64,000 bases of DNA, from IMG/VR virus record IMGVR_UViG_3300045911_000602; one strand, 5' to 3'. Below the pieces are notes generated by a model. The model saw nothing but the letters and a program-made list of their open reading frames with translations, had not been told where the DNA came from and did not search any database. Made by a program: the position numbers and the translations under genes. Origin of the DNA: a virus. Each line of letters begins with the position of its first letter. Position 1 is the first letter of the stretch. Positions 32,671-47,445 of this stretch are shown in pieces.

Positions 32671-33137
32671 TTGAAAACTCGCTTTGGTTGTCTTGCTTGA
32701 TATTCATATGTACGTCCAAATGTGAGGTGATGAAACCAACCGGTTTTAAGTTGGAGCTCATTACGTATTTTATCAATGATATCGCACTGAACTTCAACAA
32801 TAAAATAATTACCATCGTCAGGTGAATCAGTCAGGCCACTTCGTACAATTTGATAATCACCAACGTGTCTATAAAAAAATTCAACGCGTTGTTGATGATA
32901 TTTTTTCCATAAATGTTGAACTTCTGGTTTTATTTTTTCGCCCCTAACAATCGAAATGTGAGCGTCCCATGATGGTCTTTGTAAAAGAATATGTTTTTCA
33001 TACTTTATCCACCATCTATAATAACGCGTAATTTCTCTGTCAAGATCAATTACACACCAATTTTCCGTGCGACGTTTCATTGGACCACGAAAAGGATCAT
33101 ATACAATAACACCGCTTCCTTTATGATAACCGACCAC
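32667..33137 (-). CDS. putative 2H phosphoesterase (LigT / cyclic phosphodiesterase-like)
   Basis: Two H-x-[ST]-x motifs, AHISIV and HHLTFG, lie about 85 aa apart. Start set to the GTG at 33137 (AAGGA RBS) because the track start lies inside tRNA-Gly. Confidence 0.5.
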   Translation of the reverse strand: MVGYHKGSGVIVYDPFRGPMKRRTENWCVIDLDREITRYYRWWIKYEKHILLQRPSWDAHISIVRGEKIKPEVQHLWKKYHQQRVEFFYRHVGDYQIVRSGLTDSPDDGNYFIVEVQCDIIDKIRNELQLKTGWFHHLTFGRTYEYQARQPKRVFK

Positions 33138-33155
33138 GGTATTGATTCCTTGTAT

Positions 33156-33232
33156 TGGAGCAGACAGAGAGATTCGAACTCTCACCTCAAGTTTGGAAGA
33201 CTCGCATGCTAACCGTTAAACACCATGCCTGC
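33156..33232 (-). tRNA. tRNA-Gly(UCC), CCA encoded
   Basis: Acceptor GCAGGCA/UGUCUGC; anticodon arm CGAGU-CUUCCAA-ACUUG; T-arm GAGAG-UUCGAAU-CUCUC. Confidence 0.85.
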
Positions 33233-33347
33233 AATGTATTGAAAACATTGTTGCCTTTATTTAGGCTATCAGTAATACTTTATTATTTGTTATAAAACTT
33301 AAAATATATAAATATATTATATAGCATATAATTTAGGATGTCAATGA

Positions 33348-33933
33348 ATGTATTTATCGGCGAAACAAGTTAAAGAAACATATCAGATAACAAGTTAAAC
33401 ACTCCATAACTGGAGAAAAAACAACAAAATTGAATTCAAAAGATTACCTTCTGGTAGAATCGTCTATAAGACGTTGGAAGAAGCTCCTATTGTTAAAAAG
33501 AAAAAATGTTCTTTATGCTAGGGTTAGTAATACAAAACAAAAGGATGATTTGGAACGGCAGAAACAAATTTTACGGCAATTTATGGCATCTAATGGATTT
33601 GTAGTGGATGAAGAATATTCTGACATAGCATCCGGGATGAACGAATCAAGAGCAGGCTTTACTAAGCTGGTCAAAGAATGTCTCGAAGGAAAAATAGATA
33701 CAATTTTCGTAACTTATAAAGATCGATTGACACGTTTTGGTTTTGGTTACATTGAATCAATCTTATCTAGCCTTGGGACAAAAATAGTAATCATTAATGC
33801 AACAAAAGAGGAAGATTTCCAGCAAGAACTAACTCAAGATCTAGTTTCAATCATTCACCACTTCTCGATGAAAATGTATTCAAATAGAAGAAAAATTCTC
33901 AAAGAAGTAGAAGAAAAAATCAAAAACATATAA
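33348..33933 (+). pseudogene. tnpA: IS607-type serine recombinase TnpA, disrupted by an in-frame TAA and a frameshift
   Basis: The MerR-like HTH frame MYLSAKQVKETYQITS*TLHNWRKNNKIEFKRLPSGRIVY has a TAA at 33396-33398. The catalytic frame (NVLYARVSNTKQKDDLERQ...) is +1 relative to it. The switch is in the A-run at 33495-33506. Confidence 0.7.
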
Positions 33934-33962
33934 ATCTATTATAACCAATATAATTTCTTAAA

Positions 33963-35216
33963 ATGATTACTTACAAACTTCCAATTCAACTAACCGACGA
34001 CGAAAAGAAGATGATCCTTGAATTCCAAAGGATTCAATCTTCAATGATTCGTTCTGCATATAAGCAAGCTGAATATGGTTGTGCTGAAATCTCTATAAGA
34101 CAGGAAATTCGAGACAGATTTAAAGATCAACTCGATTCCTGGTTCCAACAATCAGCGGTCAAATGTGGAATCGGAATGTTCAAATCCGATCACGAAACTG
34201 GTCGATCTGGTCGAATCTTTGGTGGCAAAGGCAATCTGATTAGACGTGCAAAAGGATTGATCAGCAATGAAGAATGGAAACAAAAACGCCTTCTTCCATT
34301 GTATCTCGTTGGTGAAGCACCAACCAAAGGAAATCGTAAGTTCGAGTTCCGTGAAGACCATGTTGTCTTCAAGCCATATAATGGCTGTAAAATCAAAATT
34401 AATCTACCATCAATGAGAAAAAACTGGTCAAAGATTTGGAAACAATTATTAATTATGACATCTGAGAAGCAAATACCAATCACTGTTTCTTTGACCATTG
34501 ACTCCATTTCCTTTTCTTTTGATGACACCAAGGTAAAACAAGAAATCAAAAAAATTCCAAAACCAATCAAGAATAGATATGCTGGAATTGATATGAATCC
34601 AAATTATATTGGCATTTCTGTTTTTAATGGAACAGAGTTGATTGAAACTAAGCTGTTCTCGTTGAAATCACTGACTGGGAAAAATGCCAGTGCTTCAAAA
34701 CTTGAACATGAAACAAGAGAAATTGGGCATGCAATAGGTAAGTGGCTTCAGCATCTACGAGTTGACAAGTTGTTCATCGAAAAGCTAAAATTTAAACAAG
34801 GCGATAAAAGGATAGGTAAGAATTTTAATCGCTTAACACAGAACCAATGGAAGAAAATAACTTTAAGGTCAATTCTAGCCAAATACTTTAAGTTATATGA
34901 AATCAATGCTGCCTATTCCTCAACAATTGGCAATACTTTACATCCCGAATTACCAGACCCGATAGCCGCAAGTACTGAGATTGCACAACGAGGCTACCGG
35001 CTTGTGATACTCAAGAACAAACAGTTCTATCCAAAACTACCAGCAATAAAGTATCTAGAGGACCTATGGAAGGAAACCAAGATACCTTTGGTCAATAACT
35101 GGAAAGAACTACATTCTTGGGTCAAAAACTCGAAATTGAAATATCGAGTTCCGGTTCCAGACGAATCGGTTTTTAGAATTTTTCAGTCACCAGCTAGTTT
35201 GGTTGGTGTTCTATAG
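33963..35216 (+). CDS. tnpB: TnpB-like RuvC nuclease (IS607-associated type) with no zinc-finger cysteines, copy 1
   Basis: RuvC-like triad candidates are AGIDMNPN (D), LFIEKLKF (E) and ELPDPIAASTEIAQRG (D). AAYSSTIG replaces the usual PxYTSQxC. There are no CxxC pairs in the C-terminal half. Confidence 0.75.
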   Translation: MITYKLPIQLTDDEKKMILEFQRIQSSMIRSAYKQAEYGCAEISIRQEIRDRFKDQLDSWFQQSAVKCGIGMFKSDHETGRSGRIFGGKGNLIRRAKGLISNEEWKQKRLLPLYLVGEAPTKGNRKFEFREDHVVFKPYNGCKIKINLPSMRKNWSKIWKQLLIMTSEKQIPITVSLTIDSISFSFDDTKVKQEIKKIPKPIKNRYAGIDMNPNYIGISVFNGTELIETKLFSLKSLTGKNASASKLEHETREIGHAIGKWLQHLRVDKLFIEKLKFKQGDKRIGKNFNRLTQNQWKKITLRSILAKYFKLYEINAAYSSTIGNTLHPELPDPIAASTEIAQRGYRLVILKNKQFYPKLPAIKYLEDLWKETKIPLVNNWKELHSWVKNSKLKYRVPVPDESVFRIFQSPASLVGVL

Positions 35217-35298
35217 ATTTGTATTGCTTATATGAATTTATATGGAAAATTTATTTTATATTGTTCAGTAATAGTCAACTGTTCAGTTTTATGACAGA

Positions 35299-36075
35299 TT
35301 ATGTTTCTTCTTTTCCAAACAATTTAGCGTAATGTGTTTTAAATTTGTTTAAATATTTTTGATCATACTTGCCTTTTTTAAAAGCAGTAATTCCTTTATT
35401 ATAAGCAATAATAGCACTTTCTTTATCTTTCAATTTGTCAAAATAATGAGCTAATATATCAGCACCATGTTTAATTTGATTTTCAATGTTGTTTAATTCT
35501 TCTTTTGGTATATTCCATACACCCGGTCGTATTTGGGTTAATCCGATAGCGGGATCTTTTTTTAATTTTGATTTGGCGCTTGGATCAAAGCTAGACTCAA
35601 TTGCAACGATAGAAAGTATGTCTTTTGCGCGAGGAAAATCAGGCCTTTCATACTTATGAGCAAGATCAACAACCTGTCGAACTACGTTTTTGTCTGCACC
35701 CTTGAATATATTATTAATTGTCGAAACGTAAGTTTCTTTTTTTTGTTTTTCTTCTTTATATAGTTTAAATTGAGCATCAACAGCTCTTAACATTTGTTCT
35801 TTTGTAATTTTTGTTTTATCGTCTGTGCCCGGAAACAAATCAACAATTTTTGAAATTTGTTCTTGTGTAATATTATCAATAGTATTTTTTACATCTAATA
35901 ACTGATCTTTTGAAAAATTAAATGTGAGCGATGGAAATAATATTAATGCTGCAGCGATTGCGATCTTTTTATACTTTGTTGGTAGTTTTCGAATAATATT
36001 TGCAACGCCTTCTGGCAAATATTGCAAATGTTCTTCGAGGAGTTGATCTTCTAACAAAATTTCGTTTAGTTTCAT
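35299..36075 (-). CDS. lytic transglycosylase (SLT domain) with an N-terminal membrane anchor
   Basis: VAIESSFDPSAKS ... AIGLTQI (E-S ... GLxQ) signature. Confidence 0.75.
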   Translation of the reverse strand: MKLNEILLEDQLLEEHLQYLPEGVANIIRKLPTKYKKIAIAAALILFPSLTFNFSKDQLLDVKNTIDNITQEQISKIVDLFPGTDDKTKITKEQMLRAVDAQFKLYKEEKQKKETYVSTINNIFKGADKNVVRQVVDLAHKYERPDFPRAKDILSIVAIESSFDPSAKSKLKKDPAIGLTQIRPGVWNIPKEELNNIENQIKHGADILAHYFDKLKDKESAIIAYNKGITAFKKGKYDQKYLNKFKTHYAKLFGKEET

Positions 36076-36395
36076 TTTGCTTCTTCTATATCAAATTTTA
36101 AAGGGTGTCCGTTTTCTTTAGCGTAGTTTTCTGCTTTAGCAACTTTTGATTCAGCAACGTCTTTTGTATAGGTTCCAACAATTCCTTTTCCGTTGCGGTG
36201 TGTTGTTATCATTAGTTGAGATGCGTGCTGAAGGTTTAAATTAAAAACTTCGTTCAATACGAAAACAACAAAAAAAGCGGGTGTAAAATCGTCGTTTAAT
36301 AAAACGACATTATACATTTTTGGTTTATCATATTTTGTATCTTGTTTTTCAATATCGATGACACCAACTCGTGGGTTCAACGTTTCCAAATTCAT
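36072..36395 (-). CDS. clpS: ClpS-like ATP-dependent Clp protease adaptor
   Basis: YNVVLLNDDFTPAFFVVFVLNEVF ... ASQLMITTHRNGKGIVGTYTKDVAESK matches the ClpS core pattern. Length is 107 aa. Confidence 0.8.
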   Translation of the reverse strand: MNLETLNPRVGVIDIEKQDTKYDKPKMYNVVLLNDDFTPAFFVVFVLNEVFNLNLQHASQLMITTHRNGKGIVGTYTKDVAESKVAKAENYAKENGHPLKFDIEEAK

Positions 36396-36438
36396 TTACT
36401 TACTCCACACATTTCTTAATAAAATATTTATTAAAATA

Positions 36439-36630
36439 TTATTTTTCTTGTTCTAATTTAATACATTTTGCGGTTTTCAGTGTTGTTTGTTCATTATTAA
36501 TTAAAATTGTTTTTGAAGGTAAAACATCAACAATTTTATCACAAAAAAATTTGCTCACTGGTTTTATTTCGATTGTATATTGAGTGTTTTGATAGAATAT
36601 AAATAGTAAAAACCAATAAAGATTAGTCAA
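36439..36630 (-). CDS. hypothetical small protein (63 aa); it may be spurious within the left end of the IS element
   Basis: ORF with a hydrophobic N-terminus that abuts the tnpB start on the opposite strand. Confidence 0.3.
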   Translation of the reverse strand: MTNLYWFLLFIFYQNTQYTIEIKPVSKFFCDKIVDVLPSKTILINNEQTTLKTAKCIKLEQEK

Positions 36631-37875
36631 ATGGTCCTAAGAGCATACAAGTATCGGTTATATCCAACCAAAGAACAAGAACAGTTCTTGTTGCAAAACT
36701 TTGGTGCAGTCCGCTTTGTTTGGAACCAACTTGTAGCTAACTTCAATTCTTGGTCTAAGGACAAACCAGTTCAGACGGTCACAGAAAAGACCTTAAAAGA
36801 CGATCCTAGATATCCTTGGTTGAACGAAGCCATCAGCTACGCTTTGCAACAAAAGCGAATGGACTTTGATGAGACCAAGAAGCAATTCTTCAACAAGAAA
36901 CGAGCAATCAAACTTGGACGGATGAAGTTCAAATGCAAAGGTCGCTCTAGAGATTCTTTTAGGATTCCTGGTTCTGTGCTTCCAAAAGCAAATCTTGAGA
37001 TGTGCGAGACTGGTCAAATTGTCATCCCAAAGATGACTCCAATGAAGATGGTTGTTGATCGGAAGTTCCATGGCATCATCAAGAACATCACCGTTTCTCG
37101 CAACAAAGCAAATCAGTATTTTGTAAGTGTTCTGGTCGAAGAAGCAAAACCAGAGCCTTTACCAAATACCTATCGTGCTGTAGGTATTGATCTTGGGTTG
37201 AAAGATTTGGCTGTCCTTAGTGACGGCCATAGACTAACTAATCCGAGATGGTTTAGAGAAAGCCAATCTAAACTAAAAAGAGCACAACAGCATTTAAGTC
37301 GCAAACAAAAGGGAAGCAATCGTCGTAAGAGACAGCAGCTGAAGGTCAATCGTATCTATTTGAAAATCATCAATCAACGGAACCATCTACATCATGAGTT
37401 TTCCAAGTGGCTTGTTGAGAATTATGACTACATCTATCTTGAAGATCTAGCTGTTCAAGAGATGATGCAATCTAAGTCAAAGACTAGAAACAAGAACATT
37501 GCAGATGCGAGTTGGTCATCATTGGTATCTAAAATTGAGTACAAAGCAAATTGGTATGGCAAGGAATTTGCCAAGGTTGATCGTTACTTTGCTTCTAGTC
37601 AAGTTTGTTCTACTTGTGGTCATCATGATGGAAAGAAATCGCTAGATGTCCGTCAATGGACCTGCTCATCTTGTGGTTCAGTTCATGATCGAGACTTGAA
37701 TGCTGCCAAGAACATTGAACAAGAAGCCTCGAGAGATTTGGTTAATTGGATTAAAAGAGGCAACAGAGAATTAAGCAACTCGGCCGAATCAGTCGAGAAC
37801 AGACATCGAGAAGTGCTAAGACCAGTGGTCGGTACGACATTGGCTGCTTCGTTGAAGTGTCCAGCGATTTTATAA
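36631..37875 (+). CDS. tnpB: TnpB (IS200/IS605-IS1341 type) with a zinc finger; no adjacent tnpA
   Basis: YKYRLYPTKEQ N-terminus, GIDLGLKD (D), IYLEDLAV (E), CSTCG...CSSCG zinc finger and HDRDLNAAKNI (D). Confidence 0.9.
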   Translation: MVLRAYKYRLYPTKEQEQFLLQNFGAVRFVWNQLVANFNSWSKDKPVQTVTEKTLKDDPRYPWLNEAISYALQQKRMDFDETKKQFFNKKRAIKLGRMKFKCKGRSRDSFRIPGSVLPKANLEMCETGQIVIPKMTPMKMVVDRKFHGIIKNITVSRNKANQYFVSVLVEEAKPEPLPNTYRAVGIDLGLKDLAVLSDGHRLTNPRWFRESQSKLKRAQQHLSRKQKGSNRRKRQQLKVNRIYLKIINQRNHLHHEFSKWLVENYDYIYLEDLAVQEMMQSKSKTRNKNIADASWSSLVSKIEYKANWYGKEFAKVDRYFASSQVCSTCGHHDGKKSLDVRQWTCSSCGSVHDRDLNAAKNIEQEASRDLVNWIKRGNRELSNSAESVENRHREVLRPVVGTTLAASLKCPAIL

Positions 37876-37935
37876 GATTTTATGGAATCGCATGATTATC
37901 ATGATAACAAGCAACCAATTCATAAGTTTCTTGTT

Positions 37936-38175
37936 TTACCAAAAATAAGATACGTTGCCGTGGTTATTTGTTTCGACACGAATTCTTGTTTCGTGTTGTT
38001 TTACTTTTTCTTTAATTAAATCAATTATTTCTTTTCCAAAGATAGCATAACCTTCTTCACCAAAAAGATCAGCAAGAGCAACATTTTCTGGAGTGATTGT
38101 ACCTTCTAGTACAAAAGTAATTTCCGGTCGGTATGTTTGTTTATTGTATTTTATATCAAAATGAGTAATCTTCAT
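37936..38175 (-). CDS. hypothetical protein (79 aa)
   Basis: ORF immediately downstream, on the minus strand, of copy 1 of the 197-nt element. Confidence 0.6.
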   Translation of the reverse strand: MKITHFDIKYNKQTYRPEITFVLEGTITPENVALADLFGEEGYAIFGKEIIDLIKEKVKQHETRIRVETNNHGNVSYFW

Positions 38176-38212
38176 AGTGTGAGATCTCCTGCAATTATTT
38201 ATCGTCTTTTAA

Positions 38213-38409
38213 GCCGAGAAACCCATGTGATCTTCAGTCACGTGGATGAATCGGCCCATTGGTATCTAATTAATTTGTAGTCATAAATAGTAATGTCTGG
38301 TTGTGGGACGCAGTCGGACATTAAACAAAAACCGAAGGAGGCGTCGATGCTGTTAGGTCGAGTCAATGAGTTCGGAAACCGTGTCGTGTTTAGCTACGCG
38401 GTAGTTCAT
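38213..38409 (-). ncRNA. conserved noncoding element of about 197 nt, copy 1: a candidate structured RNA. Strand is tentative.
   Basis: About 80 percent identical to 42540-42735, with long invariant cores (AGTAATGTCTGGTTGT, GGACGCAGTCG, TTAAACAAAAACCGAAGGAGGCGTCGATGC, GAGTTCGGAAACC, TTTAGCTACGCGGTAGTT). No conserved ORF. Confidence 0.45.
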
Positions 38410-38426
38410 GTGCTAATTGATGTTGA

Positions 38427-38499
38427 TAGCAAACGCGGGATTCGAACCCACGGTTCGTACTACTAGAAACAACGCTTTAAATACATTTAACCCTTTGCC
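38427..38499 (-). tRNA. tRNA-like element (73 nt) with anticodon loop UU-CUA-GU, as in an amber suppressor. It is non-canonical and may be a pseudo-tRNA.
   Basis: The T-arm GUGGG-UUCGAAU-CCCGC is good, and acceptor GGCAAAG/GUUUGCU has 6 of 7 pairs. The anticodon stem has U.U and G.G mismatches. The D-arm is UUAA/UUAA and lacks the GG. Confidence 0.35.
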
Positions 38500-38596
38500 G
38501 CCTCGTGACTAGCACGATATTGTTGGATTTCGCCGGGCGGCTGATTAACTATCAAACACGTAAATGAACTATAAAAATTAGAGTATTAATTTTTAG

Positions 38597-38668
38597 TATC
38601 CCCCCACGGACTCGAACCGCGACTAAAAGTTTTGGAGACAATTGTGCTAGCCATTACACCAAGGGGAT
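38597..38668 (-). tRNA. tRNA-Trp(CCA), no encoded CCA end
   Basis: Acceptor AUCCCCU/GGGGGAU; D-arm GUGU-AAUGGCUA-GCAC; loop CUCCAAA; T-arm CGCGG-UUCGAGU-CCGUG. The anticodon stem has two U.U mismatches. Confidence 0.6.
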
Positions 38669-38766
38669 AAATTTAGCCTCACTATCTGAACTTGATAAAG
38701 TTGCAGCACTGAGTGCTATTCAAACCAACGTTGCGTTTAATTTTTAAAGAGCAGCATAACAAATAA

Positions 38767-38798
38767 AAAGGGCGACTTGATTTTTCGAGCCGCCCTTT
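38767..38798. terminator. bidirectional Rho-independent terminator hairpin AAAGGGCG-N16-CGCCCTTT, flanked by A/T runs
   Basis: Read directly. T-runs follow the stem on both strands. It lies downstream of the 42493-to-39015 minus-strand operon. Confidence 0.6.
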
Positions 38799-39014
38799 CT
38801 TTTTGTTCTATTTTGGTTTTTTGTTTATTTGATAGATTCTCCAAAAAGGGCGAAGCGTGGAAGATGGCTGTGCCATTCGAGGCCAAAATGCTTTCCTAGC
38901 CAAATTAAGCTATCTGAACGATTTGAGGATGATAATATTTTAAATCTCTTAAACATTTTTTAGTTAAATTGTGAGTTTATTTTATAATATTTAGGAAATT
39001 TCGTCAACAAATTT

Positions 39015-39314
39015 TTATTTATTTTTTAAATTTTTTATAACTTGTTGATTTACATATTTTTTAAATTTGCTTACAAAATCTTCAATTAAAATATCTCTTT
39101 CGTGTTGAAGATATTCTTCGCTTGAATCATATTTGTTTCTTAAATTTGAGCTCTTTTGATATTGTTCTTCAGCATATACTTTTATCATTTCGGCCAGATG
39201 CTTACCTACAATTTCGGTGAGCGTTTTTTCTTTCTCTCGCATCTGATCCAAACGAGACGATACAGATGATTCAGTTATATTAAAGTTAAATCCCTTGTAA
39301 AGATCAAAATTCAT
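39015..39314 (-). CDS. hypothetical protein (99 aa)
   Basis: ORF coupled to the upstream gene. Confidence 0.65.
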   Translation of the reverse strand: MNFDLYKGFNFNITESSVSSRLDQMREKEKTLTEIVGKHLAEMIKVYAEEQYQKSSNLRNKYDSSEEYLQHERDILIEDFVSKFKKYVNQQVIKNLKNK

Positions 39315-39703
39315 TTGTTTTCCATTTTTGCAAGTTTGGTGTAATAGTTTGGATCTTCAAGTAAATGATCAAGTGCTATTTCGCGAGCAACCTTAATATT
39401 GGTGGTATGCTCCATTTCCACTTGTATTCCTTTTTTTAGTTGATCCATAATATGTTTAAAACTTACTCCATGGAAATTAGCAATATATGTTGGTGTGTAT
39501 GTTTTAACATCGAGCACTTTTTTGTTTTCATACATTTCTCTTCTTGATTTTTGTTTTTCTTTTGCTCTCGAAAAATCATGTTTTTGATCAAAGTGCGCTC
39601 CGCCTTTCTTTGTACGAAGAACGTCATGAAGAGTTTTGCTTCCTGCTGGCTTTTGTTTTTTTAGTTCTTCGACATAATCCTTAAAAGTTAGATTTTTTTT
39701 CAT
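39311..39703 (-). CDS. hypothetical protein (130 aa)
   Basis: Track ORF trimmed to MKKNLTF (AAGGA RBS). C-terminal block EMEHT...ALDHLLEDPNYYTKL. Confidence 0.65.
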   Translation of the reverse strand: MKKNLTFKDYVEELKKQKPAGSKTLHDVLRTKKGGAHFDQKHDFSRAKEKQKSRREMYENKKVLDVKTYTPTYIANFHGVSFKHIMDQLKKGIQVEMEHTTNIKVAREIALDHLLEDPNYYTKLAKMENK

Positions 39704-39713
39704 AATTTTTTCC

Positions 39714-40016
39714 TTACCACATTTTACATGACCAATATCTTGGTGTTGTTTTATCCGTTGCTTGATCACACTTATGTCTTGCTCTAAACGCTTTTCTTCT
39801 TTCCGGAATATGTTTTTTAATTTTTAAATTCGGATCACCAAATCTAACAATAATGACATTTCCTTGTTCATTTTTTACATAAACAGCAAATTTTTTTGGA
39901 CCTCCTGGAGTTCTGAATGGTTTATTTAATTGAACTTTACGACCTTTATATTCTGTCTCTTCAATTAAATCCCATTCAGTAAGTAAGTCTTCTGTTAAAA
40001 TTTGCTCCAACAACAT
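39714..40016 (-). CDS. hypothetical protein (100 aa)
   Basis: Track ORF trimmed to MLLEQIL, just after the stop of 40018..40587. Confidence 0.65.
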   Translation of the reverse strand: MLLEQILTEDLLTEWDLIEETEYKGRKVQLNKPFRTPGGPKKFAVYVKNEQGNVIIVRFGDPNLKIKKHIPERRKAFRARHKCDQATDKTTPRYWSCKMW

Positions 40017-40017
40017 T

Positions 40018-40587
40018 TTATTCTTTGGCCTGTTTAATAACAATCATATTGTCAATTAAATTTGGATAGGGACGTCCCGCTCTTCTTGCTCTAGCTTTTG
40101 CTTTTTTGATTTGTTGTGAAGTCATTTTTCTTCCTTTAGAAGGGGAATCCTTTTCCCAAGGGTTTTCATCTTCTTTAATTGTTTTCTCCCAACGTTCAGC
40201 ATAATCGGTTGAAAATTTTTCTGCTTTTATTTTATATTGTTTTATTCGAGCACCAGCAAAGTATAAATCCATTTCTAGTGGATCTTTTTGAGATTTTATT
40301 GTTCCTTTAAACTCAACATCAAACACATAAAAGTCGTTTTGTTTTTTGAAGTTTGAAATTTTTAATGTTTCGTGATCGACATGTATTTTTAAATCATCAA
40401 GAGTGAAATGATTACCATAACGAATTTCATCGGCAATATGTTCTTTATCTATCTGTTTTACAGGATATTTCACATGTGCTTTTACATTGATGTGATATTT
40501 TTGTTTTTCAGAAGGTTGTCTATCAACGGATGATATTTCATCAGCTTCAATTACAAATTTGTTAACAAGTAATTTAGACAACTTCAT
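40018..40587 (-). CDS. hypothetical protein (189 aa)
   Basis: ORF only. Confidence 0.7.
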   Translation of the reverse strand: MKLSKLLVNKFVIEADEISSVDRQPSEKQKYHINVKAHVKYPVKQIDKEHIADEIRYGNHFTLDDLKIHVDHETLKISNFKKQNDFYVFDVEFKGTIKSQKDPLEMDLYFAGARIKQYKIKAEKFSTDYAERWEKTIKEDENPWEKDSPSKGRKMTSQQIKKAKARARRAGRPYPNLIDNMIVIKQAKE

Positions 40588-40598
40588 AACAATACCTT

Positions 40599-41867
40599 TT
40601 AATTTTTTTCGCTTCGCTTAAAATCAAATAAATCTTTAAGAGAGGGCTTACGACCGCCTCGATAAATAAAATCTCTTACTTTTTCAGGAATGTTGCTAGT
40701 AATTGGATTCATAAAACTTGACAGTTTTATCTGTGCCATCTTTATTGCTTCAACAGTACCTATTTCTAAGTAATCATATAATTCAGTCATTGCAGCGTGC
40801 ACTGTCATACAGAATGATGCTTTTGTGTCATCTCTTGTGTTGTTAAAGTCTGCACAACGTTTAAATACTTCAATAGCATTCTTTAATTCATTTTTAATTT
40901 CTTGAGGAACTTTTACGTTGTTGCCATGAGGATAGGCACCCGAGTAATCTAAGTCTGTTTCGGGTTTTTCTTCTGTGCCAACAGGATCTTTAAATTGGAT
41001 TTCGTCGACTTTTGGCTCGGTTAAGTTAGGGATAATATTAACCTTTTCGTCGGGTTGAGCAGGATTATCACCTGGCTTCGGCATCGTAAAGTTTTCCTTT
41101 ACGGGATGTTGTTTGACAAAGTCATCATATTTCATAAATTTGCCATTTGCAAATTCAATATATTTTGTTCCATCTTTTGCTTGAATAATTTTTGCGCCTA
41201 GAGGAAGCTTTGGTCTTTTGTCCTTTGCTTCACCTCTCCAAACAAGTTCTGAATGTCTTTCACGACCTTGCATCTGTTCAGAAACTAATGTCAATGCTGC
41301 CGTTTTTACATTTAGTGGTTGAGCGTTTGGAGCATCTTTAATAATAATAACATTGCCCGTACCTGAATCTTGAACGACATTGTATGTTTCGTCTTGATAA
41401 TTAACTTTCTGGCCTGTAAAAAATCGGGCACGTGAAAATGCTCTTTCTTCGTTTTCAGAAGAAGTTGATGACTGTAATTCGCCTTGAGGGACCATTTTTA
41501 CTTTGCCGTCAACTTCTATTCCAACAAAATCTGCTTTACCATCTGGTACCACTACCTTGTATGATTTTCCCTTCCACATTACATGTTGACCGGCTGTAAA
41601 TATTGGTGGAACTGCTGCTCGTTCTTCATCTTCACATCCCGCTTGTTTTCCAAATGTTACTTCCATCTCTTCTGTCAATGGAAGAACTTTTGCTCCATAA
41701 AAACCATAGTTTTGAAGTTTGAGAGCGGCAGCCTCAGCTCTTTCAGGCGAATAGTAAACAGTTGCTTCTTCTAAAGATGTCCACGTTGGTTTATCAAAAG
41801 AAGAAGCAGCTGTAAAATATTCTTTAACGTTTTTTGAACGTGCAATTACATAACCGGTCTTATTCAT
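40599..41867 (-). CDS. hypothetical protein (422 aa)
   Basis: Long ORF with no motif I recognise. Confidence 0.75.
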   Translation of the reverse strand: MNKTGYVIARSKNVKEYFTAASSFDKPTWTSLEEATVYYSPERAEAAALKLQNYGFYGAKVLPLTEEMEVTFGKQAGCEDEERAAVPPIFTAGQHVMWKGKSYKVVVPDGKADFVGIEVDGKVKMVPQGELQSSTSSENEERAFSRARFFTGQKVNYQDETYNVVQDSGTGNVIIIKDAPNAQPLNVKTAALTLVSEQMQGRERHSELVWRGEAKDKRPKLPLGAKIIQAKDGTKYIEFANGKFMKYDDFVKQHPVKENFTMPKPGDNPAQPDEKVNIIPNLTEPKVDEIQFKDPVGTEEKPETDLDYSGAYPHGNNVKVPQEIKNELKNAIEVFKRCADFNNTRDDTKASFCMTVHAAMTELYDYLEIGTVEAIKMAQIKLSSFMNPITSNIPEKVRDFIYRGGRKPSLKDLFDFKRSEKN

Positions 41868-41884
41868 GTTTGTTCCTTAATTTT

Positions 41885-42493
41885 TTATTGTTCGACAACA
41901 ATTTTAATAACTTTACCGGCACCGATTTCTTCAAGTGCGTCAAACGCTTTTTCTTTTGTTTCGAAAATCATAGCATCGCGAGCTTTTGGATCTTCAAATT
42001 CTGTCCACTTTGTTGTGTAAGAGTCGAATTCGCAAAGAACGCGTAAATCGTGAGATGGGTGTGAAACAATATAGTATTCTGTTAGTTTTTTCTTTAATGA
42101 ATAAAACATTGTGTTTGCGTGTGGAACTGAGATCCCAAGTTCCATAACAGCAAAGGTAATAAAATCTTTTCTTTTGGCTTCAGGATTTGCTTTAATCCAT
42201 TCACGAATCTTAGTTGATATTTCGCCGCGTGGTCTTTTTGCCTTCTCAGTTGATTCTTCTTTCTTGACAGAAGAAGGTTTTGTATTTGGTGTTTGTTTTT
42301 TTGGTGCTTCGCTAGCTGGCGTTGTCTTTTTCTTTATTGGAAGTTCTTCATCGACATCAATCCCCTTTGCTTTTAATTCTTTTTCGGAACGCTTAATTAA
42401 CTCGCGCTCAGAAGGAGAAAGATCGTCTTCATCGTCAAAACCAAATTGTTTATTGAACCAATTTTCTTTAATCAGTTGCTTAAGAATGCTCAT
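41885..42493 (-). CDS. hypothetical protein (202 aa) with a K/E-rich linker and HTH-like motif ISVPHANTMFYSLKKKL
   Basis: ORF downstream, on the minus strand, of copy 2 of the 197-nt element. Confidence 0.7.
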   Translation of the reverse strand: MSILKQLIKENWFNKQFGFDDEDDLSPSERELIKRSEKELKAKGIDVDEELPIKKKTTPASEAPKKQTPNTKPSSVKKEESTEKAKRPRGEISTKIREWIKANPEAKRKDFITFAVMELGISVPHANTMFYSLKKKLTEYYIVSHPSHDLRVLCEFDSYTTKWTEFEDPKARDAMIFETKEKAFDALEEIGAGKVIKIVVEQ

Positions 42494-42539
42494 TTTTGTC
42501 TCCTGAATATATAAATGTATTTAACTATTTATAAATCGA

Positions 42540-42735
42540 GCTGAGAAAAACACATGATTTTTAGTCGCGTGGATGAAACAACACATTGGTATTTAACCGG
42601 TTTGTGATCATAAACAGTAATGTCTGGTTGTAGGACGCAGTCGAACGTTAAACAAAAACCGAAGGAGGCGTCGATGCGGTTAGGTTGAGTCGATGAGTTC
42701 GGAAACCACGAAGTCTTTAGCTACGCGGTAGTTTA
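42540..42735 (-). ncRNA. conserved noncoding element of about 197 nt, copy 2: a candidate structured RNA. Strand is tentative.
   Basis: See 38213-38409. It lies between the bS21 gene and 41885..42493. Confidence 0.45.
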
Positions 42736-42791
42736 TCTTAAAAGAGACAAAAAGAAGTGAAATGCTGCCGATTATTAGTTTTTTGCTGTTT

Positions 42792-43016
42792 TTAATACAT
42801 CTTTTCTGGGAGCTTTTGCTTTGCTAGATCACGTTTCCAACGCATGATAGCAGCAGCTTTCTTACGATTTTTTCTAATGCCGGGTCTTTCATAAAACGCT
42901 TTTTCTTGCAAGGTTTTAAGAATACCACAATCGTCAACTTTCTTTTTTAACTTACGTAGTGCAATTTCGATGTGCTTTATTTCTTGTTTTTCTGGGTCTA
43001 GGTATACTTTTGGCAT
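42792..43016 (-). CDS. rpsU: ribosomal protein bS21
   Basis: MPKV...IEIALRKLKKKVDDCGILKTLQEKAFYERPGIRKNRKKAAAIMRWKR aligns with recalled E. coli S21 ([41 protein letters not shown]). Confidence 0.85.
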   Translation of the reverse strand: MPKVYLDPEKQEIKHIEIALRKLKKKVDDCGILKTLQEKAFYERPGIRKNRKKAAAIMRWKRDLAKQKLPEKMY

Positions 43017-43090
43017 AAAATTTCCTTTTTGTCGTGTTATGAATTATTACAAAACCAAAAATTTCGATAAAGTTTCTGTCCTTATGGTTA

Positions 43091-43663
43091 TCAGTCGTGT
43101 GTGCAACTGTTACACCAGTCCACGCTTGTTATTAATTTTACAATTTTTTCTGCCGTTTTAAGCGGATCGTAAGATTCAAAAGAAAAATATTGTATGTAAT
43201 TTTTGTTTAGAAAATCAACAATATTTTTATCTATTTGCTTTGCTTGTTCTTCTGTTTCATTTCTTCCGAACTGCACATAATTATCAGGTCGTGATAACAA
43301 TATATTTATGTTTGTATATGTAGAATATACACTTCTTACAAAAGAATCAAACGAATCGTTTTCATAAAAATTTTGTGGTCTATAAAATAAACTTAATAAC
43401 AAAGAAGTGTCGGTGATTGCCCATTCCACTTTTGACTTTACTAAACGACGAAGACGTTTATTTTGTTGTGCAAAAATATAATCTTGTTCGGCGAACATGT
43501 CGGGACGATTTTCGTAAACAAGATCTTTTGGGTATTCATTTACGTATTCAACGTTTAGCTTATTTGCTTTCATTAAGCCAGCAACCAAGAGAGCAGTGGT
43601 CGATTTACGACATCCTGGCCCTCCCAGCATATTAACAACTTTCAAGTTTTTATTGTTTTTCAT
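43091..43663 (-). CDS. P-loop NTPase (kinase/ATPase-like)
   Basis: Walker A-like GGPGCRKST at the N-terminus. Size is 190 aa. Confidence 0.55.
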   Translation of the reverse strand: MKNNKNLKVVNMLGGPGCRKSTTALLVAGLMKANKLNVEYVNEYPKDLVYENRPDMFAEQDYIFAQQNKRLRRLVKSKVEWAITDTSLLLSLFYRPQNFYENDSFDSFVRSVYSTYTNINILLSRPDNYVQFGRNETEEQAKQIDKNIVDFLNKNYIQYFSFESYDPLKTAEKIVKLITSVDWCNSCTHD

Positions 43664-43871
43664 TTTGTTGACAAATGACTATAAAATCTTCGTTGTTTTC
43701 TATCTTCATTTGATAAATTTTGTTGCTTTGTTGTAAACACTGTTCATATGTTAAACCTGCAATTCGTTGACTAACATCGTATAGTTGTGTATTTTCTAAA
43801 GCAGCAATTTCTGACGCAGATGGGTTAGAAAGTGTTAAAACGATAAGGGTATAAAGAGTAATTTGTTCCAT
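43650..43871 (-). CDS. hypothetical protein (73 aa)
   Basis: ORF only. Confidence 0.55.
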   Translation of the reverse strand: MEQITLYTLIVLTLSNPSASEIAALENTQLYDVSQRIAGLTYEQCLQQSNKIYQMKIENNEDFIVICQQNEKQ

Positions 43872-44010
43872 TGTTTTATCCTCTGCATAAAATATTATAA
43901 TTTTATTATTGTATTATGTTTTATGATAAAAAACAACAAAAAATTAGTATGTTTAATCTTTTTTGTGCTTACAGCATAATTATGTATTATTAGAAGCAAA
44001 ACTGAAATTG

Positions 44011-45342
44011 TATAAATACATTATAACCAATATAAATTTCTAAGAATGATCACCTACAAACTTCCAATTCAGCTAACTGATGAAGAAAAGAAAATGGTCC
44101 TTGAATTCCAGAGGATCCAGTCTTCAATGATCCGTTCTGCATATAAGCAAGCCGAATTTGGTTGTACCGAAATTTCTATAAGACAGGAAATTCGAGATAG
44201 GTTCAAAAGTCAGCTTGATTCCTGGTTCCAGCAATCTGCTGTTAAATATGGAATAGGGATGTTCAAATCAGATCATGAAACTGGTCGATTGGGTCGGGTT
44301 TTTGGTGGCAAAGGCAATCTGATTAGACGTGCAAAGGGACTTATTTCAAAAGAAGAATGGAAACAAAAACGACTTCTTCCGTTGTATCTAATTGGTGAAG
44401 CACCAGCTAAGGGGAATCGCAAGTTTGAGTTCCGGGAAGACCATGTTGTCTTCAAGCCATATAACGGTTGTAAAATCAAAATCGATCTTCCTAACATAAG
44501 GAAGAACTGGTCGAGAATGTGGAACCAGCTCTTAGTTATGGCTTCTGAGAAGCAATTGCCGATCACTGTTTCTTTAACTATTGAATCCATCTCTTTTTCT
44601 TTTGATGACGTTAAGGTGAAACAAGAGATCAGAAAAATACCAAAACCAATCAAGAATAGATATGCAGGCATTGATCTGAACCCAAATTATATTGGCATTT
44701 CTGTTTTTGATGGAACAAAACTGATTGAAACCAGATTGTTTTCATTAAAGACATTAACTGGAAAGAATGCCAGTGCTTCAAAACTTGAACATGAAACAAG
44801 AGAAATTGGGCATGCAATAGGTAAGTGGCTTCAACATCTACGAGTTGATAAGTTATTTATTGAAAAGCTAGAATTTAAACAAGGCGATAAAGGCATTGGC
44901 AAAAACTTCAATCGCTTAACACAGAACCAATGGAAGAAAATAACTTTAAGGTCAATTCTAGCCAAATACTTCAAGCTATACGAAATCAATGCTGCCTATT
45001 CATCAACTATTGGCAACATCTTACATCCGGAATTACCAGACCCGGTAGCAGCTAGTACTGAGATTGCACAACGAGGCTACCGGCTTGTGATACTCAAGAA
45101 CAAACAGTTCTATCCAAAACTACCAGCAATAAAGTATCTAGAGGACCTATGGAAGGAAACCAAGATACCTTTGGTAGAGACTTGGAAAGAGCTACATTCT
45201 TGGGTCAAAAACTCGAAATTGAAATATCGGGTTCCGGTTCCAAATGAGTCGGTTTTTAGAATTTTCCAGTCACCAGCTAGTTTGGTTGGTGTTTTATAGA
45301 TTTGTATTGCTTATATGAATTTATATGGAAAATTTATTTTAT
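44011..45342 (+). mobile_element. tnpA-less copy of the IS607-type tnpB unit
   Basis: Homology with copy 1 starts at TATAAAT..ATTATAACCAATATA (about 25 nt of the tnpA 3' end is retained). It ends after ...AAAATTTATTTTAT at 45342, overlapping the stop codon of the ligase C-terminal gene. Confidence 0.6.
44046..45299 (+). CDS. tnpB: TnpB-like RuvC nuclease (IS607-associated type) with no zinc finger, copy 2
   Basis: About 90 percent amino-acid identity to 33963..35216. Both ORFs are intact, and most 5' differences are synonymous. Confidence 0.75.
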   Translation: MITYKLPIQLTDEEKKMVLEFQRIQSSMIRSAYKQAEFGCTEISIRQEIRDRFKSQLDSWFQQSAVKYGIGMFKSDHETGRLGRVFGGKGNLIRRAKGLISKEEWKQKRLLPLYLIGEAPAKGNRKFEFREDHVVFKPYNGCKIKIDLPNIRKNWSRMWNQLLVMASEKQLPITVSLTIESISFSFDDVKVKQEIRKIPKPIKNRYAGIDLNPNYIGISVFDGTKLIETRLFSLKTLTGKNASASKLEHETREIGHAIGKWLQHLRVDKLFIEKLEFKQGDKGIGKNFNRLTQNQWKKITLRSILAKYFKLYEINAAYSSTIGNILHPELPDPVAASTEIAQRGYRLVILKNKQFYPKLPAIKYLEDLWKETKIPLVETWKELHSWVKNSKLKYRVPVPNESVFRIFQSPASLVGVL

Positions 45343-46154
45343 GTGATCATACCCTTTAATTGTTCAACGTCAATAATTTTTACATTTAGTTGTTTTGCTT
45401 TATCAAGTTTTGTGGACGATCCATTAATATTTTCGGCAACAACAAAAGATGTTGTTTTTGAAACAGATCCAGACACCTTTCCGCCCAATAAAACAATCTG
45501 TTCTTCGAGTTCTTTGGAACGAAAGCCCGTAAAAACAAAAGTAAGATTGTTTAATTTACCTTGTGGTTTTGGTTGATATGGAGCCAATATAATATATTTG
45601 CTTACTTTACCAAAGAATTCAACAAATTTTGAATAACCATTAGCAATTTTTGTTGCTGTTTTATGATCAAACCCATCAACGAGTGTAATATCAAGAACCG
45701 ATTGACATTTGGTCATATCTCCTTCAAACGCTTCGTAAAGTTTTTTCATTTTACGAATACCAATCCCGCGACCGAACGCAGGATGTGCCCCCATTAAAAC
45801 ATATAAAGGAATGTTTGTCAGTTTGTCTCGGAGCCCCTTGTAGATCTTTTTTCCGTTTGCTTTTCCAATTACACCACAAACTTCACTTTCAGTAATTGAA
45901 ATAATATCTTCTGGTTTCGTAAAACCAACATTATATAAAGCACGAAGACTTCCTTCCTTAAGAGAAGGAATATCAAGCTCTGCAAAGAAATCAAGAAGTT
46001 GCTGGAACAGTACTTCTTCATGAGTATCTTTGTTCTTTAAAACAATATCTACGGCAGTATCATTCCAGCACCAGTTTCCAGCACCAACGAGTTGATCAAT
46101 TTGTTGATTAAACCACTTGAGGTATTTTTCGTTATATGAATTCATTATTTTCAT
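45339..46154 (-). CDS. ligA: NAD-dependent DNA ligase, C-terminal fragment (HhH plus BRCT domains)
   Basis: BRCT block LTFVFTGFRSKELEEQIVLLGGKVSGSVSKTTSFVVAEN, preceded by HhH-like GxG repeats. Confidence 0.7.
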   Translation of the reverse strand: MKIMNSYNEKYLKWFNQQIDQLVGAGNWCWNDTAVDIVLKNKDTHEEVLFQQLLDFFAELDIPSLKEGSLRALYNVGFTKPEDIISITESEVCGVIGKANGKKIYKGLRDKLTNIPLYVLMGAHPAFGRGIGIRKMKKLYEAFEGDMTKCQSVLDITLVDGFDHKTATKIANGYSKFVEFFGKVSKYIILAPYQPKPQGKLNNLTFVFTGFRSKELEEQIVLLGGKVSGSVSKTTSFVVAENINGSSTKLDKAKQLNVKIIDVEQLKGMIT

Positions 46155-46201
46155 GACACAAAAAGTTATTTAAAAAGAAGTTCAACACTCAACAAGTACA
46201 A

Positions 46202-47386
46202 TTATGAAATAGGCATAGATTTAATAACTTTGGTTATTAACGGAATAACATCTCCGCTACGGACTATACCAACGATAGCGCCAGGTCCAATATTATTTTC
46301 AACAATGAACTTTGCATTGAATGCTGTGCAATAATTAATTTCTACACCAAGAAGTTTAATTGGGTTTACTTTGAGGCGCGGTTTGAGATAACCATCTTTA
46401 CTTACAGACCACTGAACTTCAATCACTTCTGTTTCAGCGTAATTATTAGCATCAGCAATTTTAAATTTTCGTGCATACTCAGGATTTAATGTATCTTTGG
46501 TTGGTACAATTTTATTTCGTAAGTCGATGTCATTCACTTCAATCACAACACCATCAATTTCGTAAGAAGTTGGAGCGCGAAATTCGTTGAGAATCTCTGT
46601 AAGGGATCCGTCATTTACATCCCTTCCATAAATTAGTTTGTTTTGAGGAATTTTGAAATCGTTTTTTTCGTGTAAACTATAAAGAGTTTCGCGTTTGTTA
46701 AAATTATGACCGCCAACAACTACTTCATATGCAATAATGTCAATATATTGATAGACAATGTCTGGATTGGTTTCAGCATTCATTACACCAGCCATCATAT
46801 TACGAGGATTTTTGTATGGTTGTCCAGCGCGATTTTTTACTAGCGGTTGAATTTTAGCAAAATTTTCTTTACTGATAATAGCTTCTGCTCTAATAACCAT
46901 TGGTTCTTTTTCAACAACTCGCATGGGCACCTGTTTGATTTTCATTAAATGACGCGTAATATCAGCACCTTCAATTCCGTCGCCACGAGAATAAGCAATT
47001 TTGAATTGGCCACCTTCTCCATACACTAGAAGAACACTAACGCCATCAAGTTTTTCGGTGACAAATAAATTTTGACTATATAGATTATACTTTTTAATCC
47101 ATTTTTCAATGTCGCCCTCGTACGCTTGTGTAAGAGAACCCATAGAAAAAGGAAGTTTTACTTTACTGCCACGAACTTCACTTCCCACTTTTGCAAAATA
47201 AGGGTGCGAAGGCTGCAGCGTTTCTGCATACCTTTTTACAGAGTCGTACTGCTCATCGGACAAAAAGCTTTCTGCTTCATTAAAGTACATTTCGTCAGCA
47301 TTTTTGAGCATGTCTATGATCTCTTCAAAAGAAAGAGATTCAATGCCAAAAGCTTCAAAAGTATCAATAATTTTTCGGGAAAACAT
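46202..47386 (-). CDS. ligA: NAD-dependent DNA ligase, N-terminal fragment (domain Ia, adenylation, OB fold)
   Basis: Motif I EKLDGVSV (KxDG), an Ia-like FLSDEQYDSVKRY, and an OB-fold end VRSGDVIPLI. Start set to the ATG at 47386; the track start at 47449 is TTG. Confidence 0.8.
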   Translation of the reverse strand: MFSRKIIDTFEAFGIESLSFEEIIDMLKNADEMYFNEAESFLSDEQYDSVKRYAETLQPSHPYFAKVGSEVRGSKVKLPFSMGSLTQAYEGDIEKWIKKYNLYSQNLFVTEKLDGVSVLLVYGEGGQFKIAYSRGDGIEGADITRHLMKIKQVPMRVVEKEPMVIRAEAIISKENFAKIQPLVKNRAGQPYKNPRNMMAGVMNAETNPDIVYQYIDIIAYEVVVGGHNFNKRETLYSLHEKNDFKIPQNKLIYGRDVNDGSLTEILNEFRAPTSYEIDGVVIEVNDIDLRNKIVPTKDTLNPEYARKFKIADANNYAETEVIEVQWSVSKDGYLKPRLKVNPIKLLGVEINYCTAFNAKFIVENNIGPGAIVGIVRSGDVIPLITKVIKSMPIS

Positions 47387-47445
47387 AAAAGTATCTTTTT
47401 GCACGCAGGAGATAAAAGCTACTATAGATGTGTTATTAACAAGTG

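Follow-up and report, generated by a model that had tools for sequence, protein, structure and literature searches.

Among the nucleases of OMEGA systems (obligate mobile element-guided activity), ISDra2 TnpB (Nakagawa et al. 2023, PMC10097598; PDB 8H1J, 8EXA) combines a minimal WED-REC-RuvC architecture and a D/E/D catalytic triad with a 33-residue CCCC zinc-finger TNB domain between β5 and α4, and it travels with a Y1 (HUH) TnpA. The 116-nucleotide (nt) scaffold of its omega-RNA overlaps with the 3' end of tnpB, terminates at the element's right end and forms a pseudoknot (PK) between positions -5..-3 and -103..-105; this guide-PK-stem layout has been described as conserved in all Cas12 guide RNAs (PMC10097598). 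ISFba1 TnpB (Ren et al. 2024, PMC11061315; PDB 8IAZ) comes from an element of the insertion sequence group IS607, whose characterised members have GG ends, insert at GG and use AGGAG or GAGGG as target-adjacent motif (TAM) (PMC13565253, PMC11061315). A phage-borne element, ISCaje4 of Campylobacter phage CP220, was described by Timms et al. 2010 (PMC2853527) and is listed in ISfinder. Here we analysed a stretch of 64,000 nt (the window) from IMG/VR virus record IMGVR_UViG_3300045911_000602, whose source contig measures 288 kb, and which encodes two TnpB-like proteins of 417 amino acids (aa) devoid of the zinc finger. The two genes are probably parts of an IS607-like OMEGA element that the phage carries in two copies, both old and diverged. 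Direct support came from the sequences themselves, the predicted fold, the conserved triad, the missing finger, the covariation of an RNA and the presence of the unit at different sites.

The 417-aa protein shares with ISDra2 TnpB the minimal WED-REC-RuvC plan and the D/E/D triad; HMMER detects no sequence similarity between the two. The scaffold predicted here likewise extends from within the tnpB 3' end to the right end, where it stops, and in both elements the pseudoknot partner lies ~105-120 nt upstream (here -1..-6 with -117..-122). While ISDra2 TnpB has its TNB finger, the present family has a linker of 15-22 residues without a CxxC pair, and the associated TnpA is a serine recombinase instead of a Y1 enzyme. 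With ISFba1, the window element has in common the serine-recombinase tnpA, the size of the TnpB (387 versus 417 aa) and a pseudoknotted right-end RNA, and ISFba1 TnpB is a fold match to the 417-aa protein at E 2e-6. Characterised IS607 elements carry a right-end RNA (reRNA) derived from RAGATH-18, whereas here the ends are AT-rich (ATAAATA... / ...TTTATTTTA) and no Rfam family was recognised.

ISCaje4 TnpB, encoded by a large virulent phage, is a member of the same family (34% identity over 98% of the query). Its gene in CP220 is annotated 'ISCaje4 transposase TnpB', and an 81-aa resolvase-like remnant stands directly upstream as a truncated tnpA; the 3' end of the element is matched by the RNA covariance model described below. 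It is a distant member, and its annotated right end, unlike that of the window copies, is without the AAAWTTTAYTTTA terminus. The original authors filed ISCaje4 under IS200/IS605 (IS608 subgroup), even though the gene in front of tnpB is of the resolvase type; no RNA was described for it, and the absence of the zinc finger was likewise not noted (PMC2853527). The C4 finger has been lost in some large TnpB branches, and the finger-less clade RIIIr-4 is specifically represented in viruses (Altae-Tran et al. 2023, PMC10691335). Our family resembles RIIIr-4 in the absence of the finger and in viral enrichment. Membership was nevertheless rejected, since RIIIr-4, which includes MazE-associated members, is defined by an Asp-to-His change in RuvC-III (PMC10691335), and the corresponding D332 is kept in 243/244 relatives of the present protein.

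Two Diverged Copies and the Ends of the Element

Copy 1 (33963..35216) and copy 2 (44046..45299) lie on the plus strand, and no further tnpB of the zinc-finger-less type occurs in the window. Both are intact open reading frames (ORFs) of 417 aa; the proteins are 92% identical, with the RuvC residues D210, E273 and D332 in copy 1 and the triad equally intact in copy 2. The genes differ at 153 of 1254 nt, the differences falling 29, 12 and 112 times on codon positions 1, 2 and 3, and 35 aa are changed. The ratio of nonsynonymous to synonymous substitution rates (dN/dS) was 0.083 at a dS of 0.57; together with the prevalence of third-position differences, this indicates that the copies are old and that both have been under purifying selection. 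Similarity of the DNA begins a few tens of nt 5' of the ATG and stops abruptly 42-43 nt past the stop codon, at 35258/35259 in copy 1 and 45341/45342 in copy 2. An earlier note on this DNA, based on the sequence alone (the original prediction), had claimed two intact 417-aa ORFs under purifying selection, homology for 43 nt beyond the stop up to a sharp boundary, and differing sequences thereafter, and the analysis agrees with it in each of these respects. The first sequences after the boundary, TATTGTTCAGTAATAGTCAA for copy 1 (35259..35278, plus strand) and TGTGATCATACCCTTTAATT for copy 2 (45342..45361, plus strand), are unrelated to each other; they are the candidate guide equivalents, given here at a presumed length.

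At the right end, related elements share the conserved terminus AAAWTTTAYTTTA, and multi-copy sets diverge directly after it, as seen in the loci L061/62/63, in L075/85, in the L080 pair, in the window pair and in L002. The right end finishes with ...TTTATTTTA(T), the left end is AT-rich, and the sequences outside on the left, AT-rich as well, read ...TAATACTT, ...AATTATG and ...TAAATAC. At a further locus (L084, 3486-3515) the right-end motif is tandemly duplicated (AAATTTACTTTAG GAATTTACTTTAG), as though the element offered a choice of two pseudoknot partners or of two boundaries.

Upstream of copy 1 we found a pseudogene of an IS607-type serine-recombinase tnpA (33348..33933, plus strand), whose three-frame translation matches NCBIfam transpos_IS607 (3e-46 for the catalytic part) and Pfam Resolvase. 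Its reading frame starts with the ATG at 33348 and is broken by an in-frame TAA at 33396, where the intact homolog in L001 has Gln, and by a frameshift in an A-run at ~33495-33506, so that the tnpA described earlier as decayed was indeed found to be so. The left end (LE) of copy 1 (33281..33347, plus strand) comprises 27 outer nt, TATTATTTGTTATAAAACTTAAAATAT, then a TATAAATA box (33307-33314) and finally the leader up to the tnpA ATG, with an outer limit that is uncertain by at most ~35 nt leftward. The ATAAATA box recurs at the LE of tnpA-carrying homologs, and L058 keeps a copy 1-type LE through GTCAAT. A second TATAAAT box, together with the tnpB leader (33929..33962, plus strand), repeats the LE box in direct orientation, in overlap with the stop codon of tnpA. 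The internal sequence in front of tnpB, ATAAATCTATTATAACCAATATAATTT, is similar to the region of the LE box and almost the same as the left end of copy 2, and a TATAAATA-like box is present ~25-45 nt 5' of the tnpB ATG in most close relatives. The complete form of the element is seen in L001, on a 292-kb IMG/VR contig (69% protein identity), where an intact tnpA of 197 aa is followed by 24 nt and then by tnpB. Because a serine-recombinase tnpA on the same strand stands directly upstream of tnpB in 27 of 115 assessable loci, 21 of these 27 genes being near full length, we regard the family as IS607-associated.

Copy 2 is devoid of tnpA, and its left end (43985..44045, plus strand) runs from 27 outer nt through a TATAAATA box (44011-44018) to the tnpB leader. 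The original prediction had taken ~25 nt at this place for a remnant of the tnpA 3' end. They are better read as the left end of the element, as the sequence agrees in register with the copy 1 LE at 20/30 positions, compared to 16/30 for the tnpA 3' end; at least 20 matches were reached by 5 of ~128,000 30-mers in the window. In addition, the outer 27 nt of copy 2 (43985-44011, the counterpart of 33281-33307) are 100% identical in L002, while the outside flanks and the right flank of L002 differ. Smith-Waterman alignment under stringent scoring did not give a significant similarity between the left ends of copies 1 and 2; the copy 2 left end was accepted on the basis of the in-register 30-mer test and the identity in L002. 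As this left end recurs in L002 amid different flanks, copy 2 is considered a complete tnpA-less unit (43985-45341), and to judge from these sequences tnpA-less units of the copy 2 type are inserted at more than one site. A left boundary between T and ATAAATA, with the preceding ..TGT/..TAT as TAM, was dropped because L002 shows at least 27 nt further left to be part of the element.

The tnpA of copy 2 has probably been deleted between the two TATAAAT-box repeats. Members without tnpA resemble precise deletions between direct TATAAAT repeats, both when L059/L060 are compared with L077 and when copy 2 is compared with copy 1; such box-to-box deletion could reflect recombination between short repeats or the excision of tnpA as a separate module. 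L058 represents a different deletion, in which the whole left end and ~100 nt of the tnpA 3' end were kept.

Throughout the window TATAAATA was counted at 11 sites (including 33307, 36598, 42526 and 44011) versus 4.25 expected, and 0/100 shuffles reached 11. Several of these sites are placed ~25-35 nt 5' of start codons, in front of phage genes and of all three tnpA/tnpB units. TATAAATA is identical to the T4 late-promoter consensus, and the elements may be transcribed from phage-type promoters.

Decayed copies were also found. L002 (4975-5747) is missing codons 1 to ~190, and P0061, located on the same 288-kb source contig outside the window, is missing residues 131-310, including D210 and E273 and with them RuvC-I and RuvC-II, and is nuclease-dead. 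Both have kept the 3' RNA region and the right end, and could on this account still supply guide RNAs to the TnpB of an intact copy.

Distribution of the Family

A profile search of 1.84 billion cluster representatives, with clusters counted at 50% identity, recovered 1,508 members when the cutoff was E <= 1e-3, and with E <= 1e-10 the number was 1,034; almost all measure 400-500 aa. In IMG/VR the family was present at 56 loci, many of them on contigs of 100-380 kb and with up to four copies per contig, and metagenomes contributed 177 confirmed stretches. In prokaryotes (one genome per species, 185,579 species) only 14 loci were detected, mostly on viral-looking contigs of metagenome-assembled genomes. 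Annotated phages with members of the family are the Campylobacter phages CP220, F379, CJLB-13 and WX1 and the Prevotella Lak megaphages, which carry 1-5 copies each; Megablast of the element DNA against 50,697 phage records gave no match. The clade is almost exclusive to phages and has been overlooked by profile-based annotation. Its neighbourhood is not conserved, and copy number and position vary among related phages.

In the original prediction, the persistence and duplication of tnpB without its transposase had been taken to suggest a domesticated nuclease, used for example for homing or for competition between phages. According to this proposal, the phage would have taken the nuclease out of the selfish transposon and fixed it as an RNA-guided weapon that serves its host genome by homing or by the exclusion of competitors. 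The dead tnpA of copy 1 and the missing tnpA of copy 2 agree with such a history, as do the purifying selection on both tnpB genes, the near-confinement of the family to phage contigs and the TATAAATA box, which is found upstream of tnpB and also before a phage gene. However, a solo tnpB under purifying selection is the normal situation for TnpB elements (PMC10691335), and the guide equivalents simply correspond to the flanking sequence of the respective copy, as they would in every OMEGA element. Moreover, both ends of the element have been kept and the tnpA-less unit is found at more than one site, deleted and nuclease-dead copies exist beside intact ones, and about one quarter of the family still has tnpA. 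Domestication is therefore unlikely, and the retained ends, the varying sites and copy numbers, the coexisting decayed copies and the tnpA genes at about one quarter of the loci indicate a selfish IS607-like element rather than a domesticated gene.

A comparison with TldR and other exapted and immobilised TnpB derivatives leads in the same direction. These derivatives also occur without a transposase, as does copy 2, but they have lost their catalytic residues and stand in fixed neighbourhoods, whereas here the triad is intact, neither end has been lost, and the number of copies and their positions vary. The second part of the earlier proposal, homing between co-infecting phages, is plausible. 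As the 'sister' can in a phage be a co-infecting genome, the idea is a reasonable one, and such homing would represent the ordinary function of an OMEGA element and not domestication.

A Predicted Omega-RNA at the Right End

The omega-RNA scaffold predicted for copy 1 spans 35051..35258 on the plus strand and was derived from RNAalifold, covariation and a covariance model. In copy 2 it spans 45134..45341 on the plus strand, with the helices of copy 1 shifted by +10083 and a covariance-model match at 45204-45341 of 139 bits. Given in the coordinates of copy 1, with all helices on the plus strand, the structure starts with stem B (35051-56 / 35080-85), for which there is separate covariation support, and continues with stem C (35130-33 / 35144-47), seen by RNAalifold and in the helix scan. 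Hairpin E (35151-57 / 35163-69) lies between stems C and D. The long-range stem D (35176-84 / 35244-52) encloses two hairpins (35188-35208 and 35212-35242) and pairs the codons for 'RIF' with the non-coding GGAAAAUUU. Finally, the invariant loop of stem C, UGAAAU (35137-42, within Leu-Lys-Tyr codons), is predicted to form a pseudoknot with the last six bases of the element, AUUUUA (35253-58). RNAalifold and the helix scan recovered stem D and this pseudoknot as well.

For the assessment of this structure, 19 non-redundant elements encoding proteins of 44-92% identity were aligned over their final 230 nt (A5). Taken together, stems C and D with the pseudoknot were 98.3% paired, compared to 82% in column shuffles (0/500 as high) and 38-59% in slid controls, and 10 pairs were changed on both sides. 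Stem C, for example, pairs the codons Ser TCG/Arg CGA, Ser TCT/Arg AGA or Thr ACG/Arg CGT. The hairpin between C and D and the two hairpins inside D fold in every homolog, from unrelated sequences. A covariance model built on stems C and D only gave 86 matches in 0.84 Mb, every one of them in sense orientation and located where a tnpB homolog has its 3' end, and in the window it matched only 35121-35258 and 45204-45341. The pseudoknot, which is absent from this model, was 93% paired across 82 distinct sequences, with 24 cells changed on both sides versus 5.8 after shuffling (0/500 as high). Loop and tail vary in matched form (UGAAGUA/ACUUUA, UGAGAUA/AUCUUA, UGAUGUA/ACAUUA, UGAGGUA/ACCUUA), and a synonymous change of Lys AAA to AAG in the loop goes together with a U -> C change on the side of the non-coding tail. 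In a distant subgroup from rumen jumbo-phage contigs (L008, L009, L010, L017, L110 etc.) the loop of stem C reads UCAAAUA and the tail AUUUUG, and the register of the pseudoknot may be shifted by one base.

Over codons 361-417, codons at synonymous sites were identical with a frequency of 0.58-0.73, compared to a baseline of ~0.5, and the non-coding tail of 43 nt was much more conserved than synonymous sites, with the same terminal motif throughout the close clade. A scan with Rfam 15 (E <= 1, 33000-46500) detected no family, RAGATH-18 included, in either element; two tRNA genes were significant and five matches were weak and sub-threshold. Taken together, the covariation among homologs supports a structured sense RNA that overlaps the tnpB 3' end and ends exactly at the right end of the element, in agreement with the omega-RNA that the original prediction had expected there; RNA structure and covariation in homologs had been among the points on which that prediction was to stand or fall.

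It is very improbable that, instead of a guide-RNA scaffold, the paired segments represent signals at the DNA level, such as transposase-binding or recombination sites at the right end or a terminator of transcription. Serine transposases bind subterminal repeats, AAAWTTTAYTTTA is located exactly at the recombination boundary, and hairpins followed by T-rich sequence resemble terminators. But the G-U pairs are invariant and would be C-A mismatches on the opposite strand, which is why the structure was assigned to the sense strand. In addition, a pseudoknot over ~120 nt and a multi-helix junction that reaches ~165 nt (~56 codons) into the ORF are unlike recombinase sites in double-stranded DNA, and the layout is the guide-PK-stem architecture of TnpB and Cas12 RNAs.

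The earlier note had also pointed to a block of 122 nt that is identical in the two copies (34971-35092 = 45054-45175) as the pattern expected of an omega-RNA. The block exists, and at this divergence its chance is ~1e-7 per position. As evidence for an RNA it did not hold, as the block diverges in more distant homologs about as much as the gene does: it differs from L058 at 26/122 nt (21%, versus 24% for the whole gene) and from L001 at 37/122 (30%, versus 34%). It is situated mostly upstream of the covarying RNA core, and the core and stem B are less diverged than the gene average. L002 is a mosaic that shifts from copy-1-like to copy-2-like along its length. Because of this mosaic and of the variation in distant homologs, the block is best explained as a tract of recombination or gene conversion among co-resident copies rather than by constraint on an RNA, and the conclusion on the RNA is independent of it.

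Recent gene conversion and coding constraint might also be thought to account for all of the 3' conservation, with no functional RNA. The behaviour of the block as a conversion tract, the L002 mosaic and the unremarkable folding z-scores fit such an explanation, which is nonetheless slightly less probable again than that of DNA signals. It does not account for compensatory changes in four helices and the pseudoknot, among proteins only ~30-90% identical, nor for the synonymous Lys codon offset in the tail or the non-coding tail conserved up to the same terminal motif across the close clade.

Fold, Catalytic Triad and Missing Zinc Finger

The protein was modelled with AlphaFold2 from the family alignment (predicted local distance difference test, pLDDT, 86.4; predicted template modelling score, pTM, 0.74). 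Foldseek matched the model over its full length to AsCas12f, Cas12k, Cas12g, ISFba1 TnpB, ISDra2 TnpB and mimivirus Fanzor2, with E-values from 6e-8 to 4e-4. The top 30 PDB matches in Foldseek were all Cas12f, Cas12k, Cas12g, TnpB or Fanzor2, extending over 336-522 columns with a probability of ~1.0, and matches to bacterial RuvC were limited to the RuvC core of the model. When the family was compared by hhalign with six canonical TnpBs from the window and flanking loci (E 0.005), GIDMNPN was aligned with GIDLG and FIEKL with YLEDL. The predicted fold supports the assignment of the 417-aa protein to the TnpB/Cas12 superfamily.

In the model, D210 ends strand β1 (205-211), E273 ends β4 (269-274) and D332 begins the helix 332-350 that follows β5. 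Conservation was examined among 244 full-length relatives, which reach down to ~25-30% identity. D210 was retained in 244/244, E273 in 243/244 and D332 in 243/244 of them, while His327, close to D332, was not conserved (Y 95, N 76, H 53). Two CxxC motifs in the C-terminal half were found in 0/244 relatives, and the linker from β5 to the helix measures 15-22 aa; the canonical TnpB at 36631-37875 carries CxxC..CxxC and matches the Pfam models OrfB_IS605 and TNB. As not one of the relatives has the CxxC pair, the absence of the finger characterises the family as a whole and does not go back to a recent loss, and it is compatible with membership in TnpB, since surveys report the loss of the finger in some bona fide TnpB branches. 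The D/E/D candidates named in the original prediction are thus conserved and placed on a RuvC fold in the model, and the finger that it had reported missing in comparison with the canonical TnpB is indeed absent; structure prediction, which it had suggested as a check, gave full-length matches to Cas12f, Cas12k, TnpB and Fanzor2. The protein is likely to be a compact TnpB-family nuclease composed of a WED/REC lobe and a RuvC domain, in which the TNB insert is reduced to the linker of 15-22 residues.

That it belongs to some other type of RuvC-fold enzyme, for example a nuclease that is resolvase-like or structure-specific and merely resembles TnpB, is the least probable of the alternatives, for although TnpB profiles do not match it and bacterial RuvC resolvases are among its fold matches (template modelling score, TM-score, ~0.6 over the RuvC core), the best matches span 390-520 columns including the N-terminal WED/REC lobe and are all Cas12f, Cas12k, TnpB or Fanzor, the gene is located downstream of an IS607 tnpA exactly as a tnpB would be, and its 3' RNA has omega-RNA architecture.

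Some relatives carry the Pfam accession PF27229, which the Pfam set searched here did not include. A Pfam scan of the relatives flagged with PF27229 matched nothing.

Weighing the Interpretation

Several observations weigh against the reading of these units as an IS607-like OMEGA element. The 417-aa protein was without a match in Pfam (E <= 1), NCBIfam (E <= 0.1) and PHROGs (E <= 0.01), and the profile of 38 family sequences did not match any of the PDB sequences (HMMER, E <= 10). Of the profile searches, which had been proposed as a check, those with Pfam, NCBIfam and PHROG models did not place the protein. TM-scores to solved TnpB and Cas12f structures were only ~0.3, as is expected for flexible two-lobe proteins modelled without their RNA. 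The folding energy of the 3' 300 nt (z = -3.4) was dropped as evidence because equally low z-scores occur elsewhere along both genes. Neither a GG terminus nor a GG insertion site nor a G-rich TAM was found at these ends and flanks; with ends that are AT-rich instead, the chemistry of transposition may differ from that of characterised IS607 elements.

The search for an empty site in related phage genomes, another of the checks proposed earlier, was negative. The joined-flank patterns of both copies were absent from IMG/VR, the flanking transglycosylase had no close relative in IMG/VR, the only useful relative of the ligase (L153) was not syntenic, and a second contig with an identical protein carries the same insertion. 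Lastly, it should be considered that we infer, rather than observe, the expression and processing of the RNA, the use of the flank as guide, the cleavage of DNA by the finger-less TnpB and the identity of the TAM.

The reading as two copies of an IS607-like OMEGA element nevertheless remains the likely one, and a mechanism can be proposed for it. The tnpB transcript would fold at its 3' end, over ~130-210 nt up to 35258 or 45341, into the guide-RNA scaffold, and read-through transcription into the flank would supply a guide of ~16-20 nt. That the flank may act as guide is suggested by analogy with ISDra2 TnpB (PMC10097598). The RNA-protein complex would cut the empty site, where the motif that borders the element on its left precedes the right-flank sequence, and this site would be located in a sister or co-infecting phage genome. 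Recombinational repair would then copy the element back, resulting in its retention or homing. Where TnpA is intact it would move the unit, but it would be dispensable for the cycle of cut and repair.

Neighbouring Genes

The setting is a large phage, and the window contains nine tRNA genes, a T4-type RNA ligase 1 (418-1545), an NAD-dependent DNA ligase and a thymidylate synthase. The tRNA genes (9621-52266) are all on the minus strand and comprise Leu x2, Arg x2, Ser x2, Gly x2 and Trp; copy 1 is placed ~50 nt from the tRNA-Gly(TCC) gene at 33156-33232. The phage also encodes a ClpS-like adaptor (36072-36395), as annotated per gene with Pfam in the identical locus L152. The NAD-dependent DNA ligase (45339-47449, minus strand) is split into two ORFs separated by a gap of 47 nt, one with the adenylation and OB (oligonucleotide/oligosaccharide-binding) domains (46202-47449) and one with the C-terminal part including BRCT (45339-46154). 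Copy 2 adjoins the end of the C-terminal ORF. In L153, the relative of this ligase, the enzyme is a single protein of 647 aa.

The canonical TnpB (36631-37875; unit 36598-37875) has 414 aa and stands alone, without tnpA; its domains are HTH_OrfB_IS605, OrfB_IS605 and the zinc-finger TNB. An exact TATAAATA is found 26 nt 5' of its ATG. This unit, ~1.4 kb away from copy 1, represents another OMEGA element that is unrelated to the first.

Implications

Elements of this kind, and this family itself, are already known: ISCaje4 is in ISfinder, there is a recent Pfam accession, and finger-less branches of TnpB have been reported. What appears to be undescribed in the searchable literature is the covariation-supported RNA architecture of the clade, its AT-rich ends and its nearly exclusive distribution in phages. 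A sizeable clade of TnpB, with at least 1,500 clusters at 50% identity, is missed by Pfam, PHROG and NCBIfam models. It combines the RuvC triad and the absence of the finger with a compact, covariation-supported scaffold whose 3' end can be read directly from the sequence.

A more specific picture of the finger-less family is conceivable, though we regard it as rather doubtful. It would be a phage-specialised OMEGA lineage that owes its persistence chiefly to RNA-guided homing when large phages co-infect, rather than to transposition by TnpA, with a phage-type TATAAATA promoter, an AT-rich TAM, and a TNB finger that is dispensable for cleavage, so that ~415 aa would be a minimal scaffold. The marker exclusion caused by T4 homing endonucleases would be the model for homing of this type.

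If the nuclease is active, the TNB finger would be shown to be dispensable, and a small nuclease with an AT-rich TAM would be available for genome editing. There is a modest chance that the family will prove of use, either as a finger-less nuclease that is minimal by nature or as a model system of RNA-guided homing from phage to phage. An active nuclease would also offer a tractable system in which to examine whether OMEGA elements function as homing endonucleases in phage-phage competition.

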